Positions 1 to 5,156 of a stretch of DNA of 64,000 nt are shown here, one piece after another (the first letter of the stretch is position 1; every line of letters starts with the position of its first letter). The position numbers were made by a program, and so were the translations under genes. The notes below the pieces were generated by a model that searched no databases, was not told where the DNA came from, and saw only the letters and a list, made by a program, of their open reading frames with translations. The DNA is taken from assembly GCF_056746865.1 (NCBI RefSeq), contig NZ_CM163382.1; one strand, 5' to 3'.

Positions 1-278
1 GTGGTATCTGGAATCTGTACACCCTGAACAACGGCGGGGCATTTATGGCACCCGAACCGGATGACGATGATGACGAAACATGGGTACTGTTCAATGCCAT
101 GAACGGTAACCGCGCTGAAATGAGCCCGGAAGCCGCCGGCATTGCTGCCTGTCTGATGACGTACAGTCATCATGCCTGTCGTACGGAGTGTTATGCCATG
201 ACGGTCCATTATTACCGGCTGCGGGATTACGCCCTGCAGCATCCGGAATGCAGCGCCATTATGCGCATCATCGACTGA
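1..278 (+). CDS. antirestriction-like protein (KlcA/ArdB-type), C-terminal part; 5' end lies upstream of the window
   Basis: Frame is open from the window edge to TGA at 276-278; acidic DDDDDE run; sits directly upstream of the radC-like/yeeT/cbeA module as in CP4-type prophage remnants. Family call is from context and memory, not a search. Confidence 0.4.
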   Translation, partial: GIWNLYTLNNGGAFMAPEPDDDDDETWVLFNAMNGNRAEMSPEAAGIAACLMTYSHHACRTECYAMTVHYYRLRDYALQHPECSAIMRIID

Positions 279-293
279 ATGGAGAGAAGTACA

Positions 294-770
294 ATGCAAC
301 AGCTTTCCTTTCTGCCCGGAGAGATGACGCCCGGCGAGCGCAGCCTCATTCAACGGGCCCTGAAAACCCTGGACCGCCATCTTCATGAACCCGGCGTGGC
401 CTTCACCTCCACCCGTGCGGCACGAGAATGGCTGATTCTGAACATGGCGGGACTGGAGCGTGAAGAGTTCCGGGTGCTGTATCTGAACAACCAGAATCAG
501 CTGATTGCCGGTGAAACCCTCTTCACCGGCACCATCAACCGCACGGAAGTCCATCCCCGGGAAGTGATTAAACGCGCCCTGTATCACAATGCCGCTGCTG
601 TGGTGCTGGCACACAATCACCCGTCCGGTGAAGTCACACCCAGCAAGGCAGACCGCCTTATCACGGAACGTCTGGTACAGGCACTGGGCCTGGTGGATAT
701 CCGGGTGCCGGACCATCTGATAGTCGGTGGCAGCCAGGTTTTCTCCTTTGCCGAATATGGTCTGCTTTAA
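294..770 (+). CDS. RadC-like JAB/JAMM-domain protein (YeeS/YfjY/YkfG family)
   Basis: ATG at 294 preceded by GGAGAGAAG; translation contains LAHNHPSGEVTPSKAD (HNHPSG JAMM-like motif); about 158 aa, typical for prophage radC-like genes. Confidence 0.85.
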   Translation: MQQLSFLPGEMTPGERSLIQRALKTLDRHLHEPGVAFTSTRAAREWLILNMAGLEREEFRVLYLNNQNQLIAGETLFTGTINRTEVHPREVIKRALYHNAAAVVLAHNHPSGEVTPSKADRLITERLVQALGLVDIRVPDHLIVGGSQVFSFAEYGLL

Positions 771-832
771 CCCGTCACAACCACATCACACCTGTTTTCA
801 CTTTTATCTTCTGTCTTCAGAGGTATCCCACT

Positions 833-1054
833 ATGAAAATCATCACCCGTGGCGAAGCCATGCGTATTCACCGTCAGCATCCGGCATCCCGTCTTTTTCC
901 GTTCTGTACCGGCAAATACCGCTGGCACGGCAGTGCTGAAGCGTATACCGGTCGTGAAGTGCAGGATATTCCCGGTGTGCTGGCCGTGTTTGCAGAACGC
1001 CGTAAGGACAGTTTTGGTCCGTATGTCCGGCTGATGAGCGTCACCCTGAACTGA
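833..1054 (+). CDS. DUF987 small protein (YeeT/YpjJ/YkfH family)
   Basis: 73-aa ORF in the conserved position between the radC-like gene and the antitoxin gene; length and sequence fit the YeeT family. Confidence 0.75.
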   Translation: MKIITRGEAMRIHRQHPASRLFPFCTGKYRWHGSAEAYTGREVQDIPGVLAVFAERRKDSFGPYVRLMSVTLN

Positions 1055-1216
1055 TGTTCCGTCACCCGGAAAACGAGTACGACTGGCAGAGCTCAGACGC
1101 CGCTGTGGATGAGGTCCTGCTCATCAACGAATACACCTTTACCGAAGCCGGTCTGCGCGCCGGCTGACCCGTCATCGTTAAACTATCATTCACCGATTTT
1201 CTGTGAGGATTTTATC

Positions 1217-2588: not shown

Positions 2589-2604
2589 ACTGTTGTTCCT
2601 TCTG

Positions 2605-4140
2605 TCAGTGGTAGTAGCCCGGACCACGCAGGTTTTCATGCTCTGAAGCATATGCCGGATGTTGTTCGCCCTGGCGGGATAATGGAAGCTCCAGGTTCTC
2701 CCGATGGTGACGCAGCAGATTGTCGATAAAGCGTCTGTCAGGGGCGTTATAGTGCAGGGCAACGTAACAGGCCTTTTCCAGCCGTTCCGGGCCGTATTTT
2801 TTCTGAAGTGCCAGCAGCCCCAGAACTGCACGATAAGCCAGTTCCGGATGGGGTTTTGCCTTCAGCATGGATTCAACCACCCGGCCTGTGGACGGGCCCG
2901 TACGTTTTCCCTGCTCGATCAGGCGTTCCGGTGTCCATGTCCCGTGCTGCCGGTGGCGCTCTGGCATGTGAAGCGGATTGGTTGTGTGTTTATATTCATG
3001 TGTGCTGCGCGGATGTTGCGCCACACACTGCCCCTTGTGCCAGAGCTGTACCACCGACTGCCCCGCCTTCAGTGACAGACGCTGACCGACCAGTTCGTGT
3101 GGAACGGAGTACCAGTGACGGGCATATTCAACGTGGTAGTCAGGGCCAACCTTCACAGCTTTGTATTCCGTGTATTCATAAGGTGCCAGAGGCAGCGGAG
3201 AGAGTGCTGGCGCATCCAGTATGCGGAAGCGTTCTGCACGGGTTTGATTGCCGTACCCCTTCATTGGCCGGTTATTCATGTCTGTCAGTAACTCCCTAAG
3301 GCGCGCATTCAGCGCCCTGAGCGTGTGGAAGGTTTCATTACGGATGCGGGCAAGAAGCCATCGTTCGACGATGAGGACGCCGTTTTCTGCTTTTGGTTTA
3401 TCTTTAGGTTTGCGTGGTCGGGCCGGGATGATAACCGTGCCATAGTGCTCAGCCAGTGCCTGATAACTGTCGTTGATGACAGGCTCATATCGATCGGCCT
3501 TTTTCACTGCGCTTCTGAGGTTATCGGGGATGAGCAGCTTCGGTACGCCGCCCAGGAAGGTCAGGCAACGGCTGTGGGCATTTAACCATGACATCATGTC
3601 CTGACCTTCGCACGCTTCAACGTAGGTATAGTTGGACGCCCCCATTACGGCCACGAAGATTGCCACGCGGCGTATCTCACCGGTGTCCGGATTAATAACA
3701 GGAACCGTAGGACCACAGAAGTCGATAAAAAGCTTTTCGCCGGCACGATGCTCCTGGCGCATGGAGAGACGTCGCGTTTTTTTCCACTCCCGGTAGCAAC
3801 GGCAGAAGTGCGAGTATCCCATCGCTTTGTTACCCGCCTGTGCCTTGTATTCCATCCACAACAGTTGCCGCGTCACACCTGGTTTTCTCATTTCCGTATC
3901 GAGGTACAACATGTCAGGCATTACAAGCTCTGATGCAAAGGTGTCTTTGGGCGGAAAAATGAGTTTCTCCAGCGTGTCATGGGATATATCAGCAGGTAAT
4001 GGCCATGACAGAGAAGAGGCTTTGAAGCGGGCAAGAACCTCAAAAACGGTTGAGGCGCTGATGTGTAACGTCAGTCCGATACAACGGTTAGTCAGCTTCT
4101 TGTCGAACTTGAGCTGAAGAATCTTAAAACAGGTTTCCAT
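2605..4140 (-). CDS. istA: IS21-family transposase IstA (HTH + DDE)
   Basis: 512-aa product from ATG at 4140 (METCFKILQ..) with AGGAG 5 nt upstream; N-terminal HTH-like region and central integrase/DDE-like region; followed 16 nt later by istB. Confidence 0.8.
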   Translation of the reverse strand: METCFKILQLKFDKKLTNRCIGLTLHISASTVFEVLARFKASSLSWPLPADISHDTLEKLIFPPKDTFASELVMPDMLYLDTEMRKPGVTRQLLWMEYKAQAGNKAMGYSHFCRCYREWKKTRRLSMRQEHRAGEKLFIDFCGPTVPVINPDTGEIRRVAIFVAVMGASNYTYVEACEGQDMMSWLNAHSRCLTFLGGVPKLLIPDNLRSAVKKADRYEPVINDSYQALAEHYGTVIIPARPRKPKDKPKAENGVLIVERWLLARIRNETFHTLRALNARLRELLTDMNNRPMKGYGNQTRAERFRILDAPALSPLPLAPYEYTEYKAVKVGPDYHVEYARHWYSVPHELVGQRLSLKAGQSVVQLWHKGQCVAQHPRSTHEYKHTTNPLHMPERHRQHGTWTPERLIEQGKRTGPSTGRVVESMLKAKPHPELAYRAVLGLLALQKKYGPERLEKACYVALHYNAPDRRFIDNLLRHHRENLELPLSRQGEQHPAYASEHENLRGPGYYH

Positions 4141-4372
4141 AGTGCTCCTGGATTTTCTCTTTCTGGACATTGACGTCTCCACTGGTTTAAACACGGCAAT
4201 GGAGACTGTGGTGAAAAGAGTTAATTCCCGGAGTGACTGGCAGGATGCCAATCAATGATCGGAAGCATGCCAAATCGTGATCGATTGTGATGCCAAACTG
4301 TGATCGGAGATGGATGCCAAATCATGATCGATTCGAATGCCAAACTGCGATCGATTCAGATGCCATTTTGCA

Positions 4373-4417
4373 GTCACCATCTGGCAGACACTGCTCACCC
4401 GGTTACTGGACCAGCAT
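4373..4417 (+). pseudogene. cbtA-family toxin gene, short continuation after the IS (..[13 protein letters not shown]), then unrelated sequence
   Basis: Removing the IS and one GTCAC copy restores ..[18 protein letters not shown] in frame; downstream the sequence no longer encodes a CbtA-like protein (deleted or decayed). Confidence 0.6.
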
Positions 4418-5156
4418 TCCCTGATTTCCTCATCGATATCGAATAAGCACTCGTCGCAGAATTCTTTATCGAGTGAGAGCCTCTGTTCAAGGACGCTTCT
4501 TTTTTTTGTTGCAACGTGCACATCCCTTCATCTTTCCGCGCCTTTGTGACCTCGTGATTTGGGGTACATGGAAAATGGGCGTAGCAAGCCTCAGCTAGAT
4601 AACTAACCGTAATAAAAGGGCTTTTCTGCGAGCAATGTAAGAGAAGGATAACTAGGCAGGTTGCAAGAAAGATAATCGTTTTGATAGATCAGTTTATCGA
4701 TATTGATCGTTAGTGCCGATCGATAAGAAGTGCGGAAACGTTAGACTCACCTCTGTTGCTCCATCATGATGATGGGGCTGTTGGCCCTCGAATCTATCTG
4801 TCTATTAGCATCGGCATGACAAACACCATTTGTTTCCACAACAAAAGACAATAGAAAAGTACATATGTACAAAAAGTGTGATTTATTCTGTCACTTCAGT
4901 ACTTCCTTTCGCCTAAGTTTGCCCGTAATAATTCCCCGTGCAGTACTATTGTTGCGACATAACAACATGAATTACATGGTAATAATAGATGTTTTCCTCT
5001 GCTGATTCCTGTAAGGATCATGACTCCATACGACATCATTTTTAATTTTATACAGTTCAAAAAATCTACATGTGTCACAAATAATTTTACATTTGATAAT
5101 GTATAGTTGTCACATGACAAGTTGATTATCATTCTGTGTAGACAAGGAGAACTGTT

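Follow-up and report, generated by a model that had tools for sequence, protein, structure and literature searches.

The junction between a CP4-type module and the DHAP-shunt operon in the DNA analysed here (the window, a single stretch of 64,000 nucleotides) very probably records two unrelated and ordinary events in a composite tRNA-leuX island: an old deletion shared with many other genomes, and a later insertion of an IS21-family element that is private to the source strain. The breakpoints were fixed at 1734-4372 for the insertion sequence (IS), with GTCAC duplicated, at 4417/4418 for the deletion scar (TT), at 4735/4736 for a seam within the spacer, and at 9264 for the end of the IS1F deletion in K-12.

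The initial annotation had placed the distal gene set of a CP4-type element at the window start, and Pfam and PGAP recovered all of its members:

1..278, plus strand: 3' part of an antirestriction (KlcA/ArdB-like) gene, its 5' side cut by the window start; Pfam PF03230, E=9.7e-35, match 3-275.
294..770, plus strand: RadC-like JAB gene (yeeS-like); PF04002, E=3.4e-44, match 294-767; yeeS in the PGAP annotation of D3.
833..1054, plus strand: DUF987 gene (yeeT-like); PF06174, E=1.5e-40, match 833-1051.
1217..1585, plus strand: CbeA/YeeU type IV antitoxin gene, intact and now orphan; PF06154 positions 1-100 of 101, E=3.8e-53, match 1217-1582.
1675..1733, plus strand: 5' piece of the cbtA pseudogene, codons 1-19 and 2 nt, stopping at the IS.
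4378..4418, plus strand: distal piece of the cbtA pseudogene, to codon 33 and 1 nt, where homology to intact cbtA (strain 631, ATCC 25922) stops.

The first gene is named 'antirestriction protein' by PGAP on the 100% identical DNA of strain D3, and the order antirestriction, RadC/JAB, DUF987, CbeA, CbtA is the same in strain 631, ATCC 25922 and Yokenella. CbeA is full-length, under an accession (WP_001295723.1) common to D3, E21 and ATCC 25922. The CbtA gene directly downstream is reduced to 33 codons split by the IS; when rebuilt without the IS, this stump matched positions 1-34 of the 112 of PF06755 (CbtA_toxin), and PGAP marks cbtA as a partial pseudogene in D3. Beyond the IS, 41 nt of the toxin gene are left (4378-4418), or 46 nt with the duplicated GTCAC, in line with the approximately 45 nt first estimated. 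The orphan CbeA is a leftover of toxin loss by island decay.

The element that breaks the last gene of the module belongs to the IS21 family, as had been proposed, and interrupts cbtA at codon 20:

1734..4372, minus strand: IS21-family insertion sequence, complete at 2639 bp and with TG...CA termini; PGAP places its IstB in the ISSso4 family.
1833..2588, minus strand: istB, helper AAA+ ATPase, intact, 251 aa; PF01695 IstB_IS21, E=1e-60.
2605..4140, minus strand: istA, transposase, intact, 511 aa; PF00665 rve and PF22483 (Mu-transposase C-terminal domain).
1729..1733: left copy of the target-site duplication GTCAC, of which the D3 empty site has one copy only.
4373..4377: right copy of GTCAC, from comparison with the D3 empty site.

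The boundaries were set from the D3 empty site and four other copies of the element; the window and D3 alignments overlap by CAGTCAC because the IS terminates in ...CA. The ends read TGCAAAATGGCA...GCGGAATACGCA, and about six terminal repeats of the form GATGCCAAA-N-GATCG occupy 4244-4370, their inverted partners being at 1746-1800. The istA gene is as long as the PGAP istA of other copies. IS21-family elements generate target-site duplications of 4-8 bp in ISfinder descriptions, and the duplication is 5 bp at the window site versus 6 bp in four sister copies. Thus istA followed by istB, TG...CA ends with repeats, a short duplication and identical copies elsewhere, all characteristic of the family, were found together. 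Full-length copies that are 100% identical occur on chromosomes and plasmids at unrelated sites, and the element is present at 80% coverage or more in 225 genomes. With positions 1734-4377 taken out, the window is 100% identical to and colinear with D3 across 6356 bp, and the left IS junction at this site was found in none of 5426 complete E. coli genomes. Strain E21, which had appeared to carry window 1-9000 in full (100% coverage), proved to be a joining artefact, its IS copy lying upstream of agn43. E21 also has an extra IS3 within mtnK. The IS21-family element is therefore a simple and recent transposition, which at this site is private to the source strain.

To the right of the IS, the following features lead up to mtnK, which begins at 5157:

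4417..4418: deletion junction, a 2-bp microhomology (TT) common to both parental sequences; three-way comparison of the window, intact cbtA and ATCC 25922.
4419..4531, minus strand: remnant of a small ORF (55 aa, CxxC...CxxC, zinc-ribbon); the ORF is intact in ATCC 25922.
4419..4735: DNA of a small-ORF/GT2 cassette (ORF remnant and upstream region), 91% identical to 5798-6114 of Lelliottia jeotgali island L015.
4736..5156, plus strand: mapped DHAP-shunt promoter region, 99.6% identical to ATCC 25922; GC 0.33-0.40.

The end of toxin-gene homology, first put at about 4417, was located at 4417/4418, and the candidate scar there is a genuine deletion that joins the decayed CP4-type module to DNA upstream of mtn. 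ATCC 25922, which is 99.94% identical to the window on the left (1-1733) and 99.6% on the right (4417-7004), is undeleted, with 13,239 bp between the breakpoints, or approximately 11,986 bp without its ISEc52. This interval contains intact cbtA, DUF5983, DUF957, a type IIS restriction-modification (R-M) system, McrBC and a GT2 glycosyltransferase fragment. ATCC 25922 has both of the genes that the scar truncates at full length, strain 631 and Yokenella also have full-length CbtA genes, and the small ORF has full-length homologues in other genera; the direction of change is therefore deletion and not insertion. Immediately to the left of the scar, the window stump and the cbtA of ATCC 25922 differ at 3 of 46 nt, and therefore either the true parent had a cbtA allele somewhat unlike that of ATCC 25922, or CP4 paralogues have undergone gene conversion.

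The junction of truncated cbtA, spacer and mtnK without the IS21-family element was observed in at least 406 of the 5426 complete genomes, including D3, FDAARGOS_497 and MS6198, whose junctions are 100% identical to that of the window. The undeleted right junction is kept in 468 genomes, and 1083 carry the region. A single origin of the scar was assumed from the identity of the junctions. The initial annotation had regarded the scar as an island boundary; it lies instead inside the composite leuX island, the lost 13.2 kb being retained by ATCC 25922. It had also named in advance, as evidence against a local rearrangement, the same contiguous arrangement in many genomes without IS21 and with an intact toxin gene. 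The IS21-free arrangement was found, but the toxin gene in it is not intact.

The spacer measures 738 bp (4419-5156), close to the 740 bp initially given. Rather than unrelated non-coding DNA, as it had been described, it is a mosaic of the cassette remnant (4419-4735) and the DHAP-shunt promoter region (4736-5156). Homology to Lelliottia jeotgali stops at 4735, marking an older seam at 4735/4736. The small ORF has been inactivated twice, by a T7-to-T8 frameshift at 4500-4507 and by loss of its last 19 codons to the deletion. It has 32 homologues in Enterobacteriaceae, its four cysteines are invariant in all 13 aligned sequences, and Pfam assigned the 55-aa product to no family. Thus, a conserved small ORF is located in what the literature has regarded as intergenic DNA. 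The small-ORF/GT2 cassette is found throughout the Enterobacteriaceae in CP4-type islands; in Yokenella it closes a CP4-type module, and in Lelliottia it adjoins McrBC. Rfam at gathering thresholds gave no match in the whole window, leaving the spacer without a known ncRNA or riboswitch; a terminator scan of 4373-5200 found none, and a scan of the same interval gave four promoter-like sites against 2.3 expected, a figure that says little by itself.

Other insertion sequences occur in the island. ISEc12 lies at window position 4644-4653, approximately, in LS45, and in three other strains as judged from matching hit span and annotation; S931B has ISEc52 at 4443-4446, as probably do other genomes in which the match is split near there. 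ISEc23 of EC488 is outside the spacer, between RadC and DUF987. The spacer was considered as an IS hot spot, a reading with weak support, and the pattern fits insertion tolerance in dead DNA. The IS5 at yjhR (window 26174-27364) is also present in 87 genomes with the scar allele.

The right-hand part of the region consists of the following features:

5157..9321, plus strand: DHAP-shunt operon, 100% identical to D3 with PGAP annotation; mtnK 5157-6416, mtnA 6426-7541, class II aldolase ald2 7572-8213, GRP-family transporter 8317-9321.
9264: start of K-12 homology, inside the 3' end of the transporter gene; the right end of K-12 IS1F abuts this base.
9362..10348, minus strand: mtnR (yjhU); PGAP coordinates transferred from D3, function from PMC12632272.

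The function of this sugar-salvage operon has been described (PMC10986504, PMC12632272), its promoters, MtnR/CRP control and 126-255 bp requirement have been mapped (PMC12632272), and its presence in the tRNA-leuX island of ATCC 25922 was reported by North et al. 2020 (cited in PMC12632272). By the definition given there, the window holds the operon: four genes, at least 255 bp of conserved upstream DNA and an adjoining divergent mtnR (yjhU). The 739 bp upstream of mtnK are colinear with ATCC 25922 (99.6%), and by offset from mtnK the P1 and P2 start sites fall near 5085 and 4969, respectively. The IS21-family element lies 785 bp upstream of mtnK, with its transcription directed away from it, and the promoters and CRP/MtnR control lie within approximately 255 bp; expression of the DHAP shunt should therefore stay unaltered, and we infer that the deletion and the IS insertion probably have no effect on mtnK expression.

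From yjhU onward, the K-12-like order that had been noted was borne out: window 9264-34223 is colinear with K-12 at 99.96-99.99% identity, one IS5 insertion apart, 34223 being the end of the K-12 stretch compared. The initial placing of fec/IS1 upstream of yjhU in K-12 was also correct, as fec/IS1F lies directly upstream. The polarity is the reverse of an accessory cluster grafted onto a K-12-like yjhU, as first envisaged: YjhU is MtnR, which represses the DHAP-shunt operon itself (PMC12632272), and in K-12 the 3'-terminal 58 nt of the transporter gene stand directly against IS1F. Because this tail is kept there, K-12 represents the deleted form; it lost the mtn cluster through a deletion next to IS1F whose endpoint is window 9264. 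The absence of the DHAP shunt from K-12 is thus a secondary, IS1-mediated loss that left mtnR (yjhU) without its operon.

Several other explanations of the junction were weighed. The IS21-family element is only 45 bp from the scar, within the same broken gene, and IS-adjacent deletion is real in the leuX island, as shown by K-12 IS1F at window 9264. It is nevertheless extremely unlikely that the element mediated the rearrangement, by IS-adjacent deletion or inter-copy recombination, and so joined a prophage remnant to the mtn islet. A perfect target duplication surrounds the IS, taking it out gives back precisely the D3 sequence, no IS terminus falls at the scar, at least 406 genomes have the scar without the IS, and this element stands at the window site in none of the 5426 genomes. 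Hence, of the deletion and IS-mediated rearrangement initially proposed, the deletion stands and the role of the IS does not. It is scarcely credible, too, that the junction is an att boundary left by site-specific integration of a CP4-type element beside an mtn islet already in place. Islands of the CP4 type are integrase-borne, and the mtn cluster has been placed at the leuX island end (PMC10986504), but the junction falls within two ORFs, at codon 33 of cbtA and codon 36 of the small ORF, the leuX 3'-end repeat is absent from the whole window (14-24 nt, one substitution allowed), and ATCC 25922 has 13.2 kb more island DNA between the two points.

The window arrangement might instead be ancestral, the ATCC 25922 type having gained the 13.2-kb R-M/McrBC segment by insertion, as defence modules are often acquired; neither form is much commoner than the other (468 versus at least 406 genomes). 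Such an insertion would have had to bring exactly the 3' two-thirds that cbtA lacks, in frame and with the canonical DUF5983 and DUF957 behind it, together with the small-ORF C-terminus and its GT2 partner, and full-length cbtA and small-ORF homologues stand in that same order elsewhere, which makes this history very unlikely. A mis-join in the source assembly, at the IS or at the junction, is highly doubtful as well. IS copies are classic misassembly sites and this insertion is in no other complete genome, but hundreds of independent complete genomes match both flanks at 100% identity, and a proper target-site duplication is not a product of mis-joining.

Under the preferred reading of an old deletion followed by a private insertion, the ancestral island would have resembled that of ATCC 25922, with a CP4-type module (Ag43, DUF932, antirestriction, RadC, YeeT, CbeA, CbtA, DUF5983, DUF957) followed by type IIS R-M, McrBC, the GT2 fragment, the 55-aa zinc-ribbon ORF and mtnK-mtnA-ald2-transporter with mtnR (yjhU). 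One deletion by illegitimate recombination, old and shared and approximately 12 kb long (13.2 kb on the ATCC 25922 scale), would have joined cbtA codon 33 to small-ORF codon 36 at the TT microhomology. It would have removed the toxin, R-M and McrBC, leaving an orphan antitoxin and 739 bp of an original 799 upstream of mtnK. More recently, and in this strain privately, the 2639-bp ISSso4-like IS21-family element would have inserted at codon 20 of a cbtA stump that was already dead, with duplication of 5 bp.

These changes are textbook genomic-island decay, with toxin loss, defence-gene loss and IS build-up in dead DNA. It is unlikely, though conceivable, that the deletion of approximately 12 kb was selected and not neutral, with the orphan CbeA giving standing protection from the CbtA toxins of paralogous CP4-type elements or of incoming ones; if this were true, the one-step loss of CbtA, type IIS R-M and McrBC would lower the barriers of the lineage to foreign DNA. 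The private IS insertion, the scar (at least 406 genomes) and the IS5 at yjhR (87) may serve as lineage markers.

Compared with known systems, the module shares the gene order yeeS-yeeT-cbeA-cbtA with the type IV module cbeA-cbtA (yeeU-yeeV) of K-12 CP4-44, with approximately 85% DNA identity across cbeA and the cbtA start. In contrast to CP4-44, the window toxin is cut to 33 codons and split by the IS, the antitoxin alone is intact, and the module is located in the leuX island and not at the CP4-44 site. The inserted element shares istA and istB, TG...CA ends, multiple terminal repeats and a short duplication with the IS21 family (IS21, IS100, ISEc12, ISSso4), but is not close to the ISEc12 in the LS45 spacer, with no megablast alignment in the window search. 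The KpLE2 region of K-12 (fec-IS1F-yjhU) resembles this island in the IS1 site beside ykiE/fecI, but lacks all DNA from the IS1 right end to window 9263, approximately 28 kb in D3 terms, which is the signature of an IS1-adjacent deletion. Unlike the window, none of the genomes with the scar allele (D3, FDAARGOS_497, MS6198 and at least 400 others) has this IS21-family element in the cbtA remnant. The leuX island of ATCC 25922 shares mtnK-mtnA-ald2-transporter, mtnR (yjhU), the proximal 739 bp upstream and the CP4-type module at 99.6-99.9% identity; relative to it, the window lacks the 13.2 kb from cbtA codon 33 to the 60 bp farthest from mtnK in the 799-bp upstream region, and has added the IS21-family element and the small-ORF frameshift.

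The junction at 4417/4418 in cbtA is a microhomology deletion that predates the neighbouring IS21-family element. The deletion scar recognized in the initial annotation is therefore real, but the IS-mediated rearrangement proposed alongside it did not occur, the IS being a simple, recent and private insertion. The coordinates first assigned to this region were each correct to within a few bases, and its features are as follows:

3-275, plus strand, 3' part of an antirestriction gene (PF03230)
294-767, plus strand, RadC-like JAB protein (PF04002)
833-1051, plus strand, DUF987/YeeT protein
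1217-1582, plus strand, full-length CbeA/YeeU antitoxin (PF06154 positions 1-100 of 101)
1734-4372, minus strand, complete IS21-family element (termini TG...CA)
1833-2588, minus strand, istB (251 aa; IstB_IS21, E=1e-60)
2605-4140, minus strand, istA (511 aa; rve and Mu-transposase C-terminal domain)

The cbtA reading frame starts at 1675 and, with the IS removed, its first 33 codons match positions 1-34 of 112 in the CbtA_toxin profile; mtnK starts at 5157.

Without 1734-4377, the window is 100% identical to and colinear with E. coli D3, which has the scar and no IS, over 6356 bp (window 1-1733 to L001 12001-13733; window 4371-9000 to L001 13727-18356). Because the IS's own end is CA, the 7-bp alignment overlap CAGTCAC includes a 5-bp target-site duplication, whose two copies (GTCAC) lie at 1729-1733 and 4373-4377. 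Four identical sister copies (L009-L012) have 6-bp duplications versus the 5 bp here, a small oddity, yet inside the known IS21-family range. The hexamer GTATCC is the duplication of two of these four copies, in different genes. Approximately six copies of the motif GATGCCAAA-N-GATCG lie at the istA-proximal end of the IS, with inverted partners at the opposite end. The 2639-bp element, whose IstB is labelled 'ISSso4 family' by PGAP, recurs, in full length and at 100% identity, at many unrelated locations on chromosomes and plasmids (at least 80% coverage in 225 genomes), and a 200-nt probe spanning the cbtA'/IS junction reached at least 80% coverage in none of 5426 complete genomes. Strain E21, the sole apparent full-length match to window 1-9000, was rejected because its IS sits elsewhere, upstream of agn43. 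That site belongs to the same island, and in E21 the end of mtnK is also interrupted, by an IS3-family element (L003 6001-8640, 17191-18404). In strain 2-101 (L010), the IS lies within a DUF932 gene beside an antirestriction gene, as in CP4-type modules, which are a recurrent location of this element.

A reconstructed empty-site probe (window 1400-1733 joined to 4378-5200) was covered to at least 80% in one piece in 406 genomes, and in D3 and the sampled full-coverage matches PGAP places a 99-nt pseudogene ('CbtA family, missing C-terminus') at the position of the stump. In further genomes only probe positions 1-373/375 matched, corresponding to intact cbtA loci, and in others only positions 374-1157, corresponding to mtn-bearing genomes such as ATCC 25922. 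A three-way comparison placed the switch point at window 4417/4418: intact cbtA reads ...CAGCATTACAGCC, ATCC 25922 reads ...CCTTCTTTCCCTGATT and the window reads ...CAGCATTCCCTGATT, and thus the parental sequences have only TT in common. In ATCC 25922, both parental sequences are found in one island, in the same orientation and 13,239 bp apart (approximately 11,986 bp without ISEc52 and its target-site duplication), with the following between them:

first: rest of cbtA, DUF5983, DUF957, HTH fragments
next: Alw26I/Eco31I/Esp3I-family methyltransferase, dcm, cognate endonuclease, McrC, McrB (split by the 1250-bp ISEc52)
further: restriction-endonuclease fragment, 84-aa GT2 fragment

The undeleted right junction is kept in 468 genomes. 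The event was a deletion, not an insertion: ATCC 25922 has complete versions of the two genes that the junction truncates, the small reading frame at the right side is full-length in other genera, and CbtA is full-length in strain 631 and Yokenella.

Immediately left of the scar (window 4378-4416, L007 15827-15872), 3 of 46 nt are mismatched to ATCC 25922 cbtA, and further left there is one mismatch in 1733 nt; cbtA of strain 631, from a different island, is nearer to the window's stump. It is probable that the parent of the deletion had another cbtA allele, or that gene conversion took place.

The mtn cluster had been described as grafted onto a K-12-like backbone, but this polarity is reversed. 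The gene order in K-12 is fecI-ykiE-IS1F-yjhU, in line with the initial annotation. IS1 occupies the same left site in K-12, D3 and ATCC 25922, with sequences that stay homologous as far as the final base of IS1F and diverge beyond it. Homology between K-12 and the window restarts at 9264, in the transporter gene (8317-9321) and 58 nt ahead of its stop, where the right end of IS1F abuts in K-12 (L008 24473-25240), and identity over 9264-26173 is 99.99%. The shared IS1 site and this restart therefore identify K-12 as the deleted form. An IS1-adjacent deletion, approximately 28 kb long in D3 terms, took away the DHAP-shunt operon together with the CP4-type module; what K-12 kept is the orphaned mtnR (yjhU) and the last 58 nt of the gene for the transporter. 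Relative to K-12, the window also has an IS5 insertion beside yjhR (26174-27364, 1199 bp including the target-site duplication), 100% identical in 87 complete genomes, including FDAARGOS_497, 118UI, MS6198 and Ecol_881; it is a marker of a sub-lineage within the scar-bearing genomes.

In the leuX island, mtnK-mtnA-ald2 and the transporter gene together make up the DHAP-shunt operon, with which ExPEC can grow on 5'-deoxynucleosides (PMC10986504). The operon is activated by CRP and repressed by YjhU, renamed MtnR; its primary start site, P1, lies 72 bp upstream of mtnK, with a weak P2 approximately 188 bp upstream, and 126-255 bp of upstream DNA at most suffices for regulated expression (PMC12632272). 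The scar and the IS lie at -739 and -785 relative to mtnK. Both positions are far beyond the control region, and transcription of the IS runs away from the operon, so neither the scar nor the IS is expected to change operon expression.

The spacer, 4419-5156, is not simply unrelated non-coding DNA, as initially annotated. A Lelliottia island matches it at 91% identity up to window 4735, coincident with a fall in GC to 0.33-0.40; thus 4419-4735 is a cassette remnant and 4736-5156 the operon's own upstream region. In ATCC 25922, a 55-aa minus-strand reading frame, MKRCARCNKKRSVLEQRLSLDKEFCDECLFDIDEEIRERRIITIRRLKDDNERKS, lies directly upstream of the GT2 fragment (intact at L004 8947-9114). It has 32 homologues of 53-100% identity (Escherichia, Lelliottia, Enterobacter, Citrobacter, Klebsiella, Kluyvera, Yokenella), its four cysteines are invariant in 13 aligned sequences, and no Pfam family matched it. 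In Lelliottia and Yokenella, a full-length GT2 gene (312-323 aa) starts 6 nt after it, the pair adjoining McrBC in Lelliottia and, in Yokenella, standing at a CP4-type module's distal end. The window copy, from 4531 down to 4419 on the minus strand, carries two inactivating lesions: a frameshift where a T7 run has become T8 (4500-4507), and the absence of the last 19 codons, which the deletion took. The 799-bp upstream region has been regarded as ORF-free, with 52 coverage variants among 1847 genomes (PMC12632272); this conserved, unannotated CxxC...CxxC zinc-ribbon frame lies inside it. ISEc52 is inserted at 4443-4446 in S931B (L006), and probably in other genomes whose match splits close by, and ISEc12 at approximately 4644-4653 in LS45 (L002) and three other strains; with that of the window, three independent IS insertions fall within approximately 280 bp of dead DNA.

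The scar does not mark an island boundary, as had been proposed, because in D3 the whole region lies inside one composite island of approximately 50 kb, in this order:

first half: leuX, integrase, nanXY, fec, IS1, AlpA-like regulator, YfjI
continued: GTPase, Ag43, CP4-type distal module, scar, mtn operon

No leuX-derived direct repeat was found in the 64-kb window, and an Rfam search gave no match. Hundreds of public genomes already carry the scar allele in annotated form; all of the components belong to known families, and only the insertion site of the IS is new here.
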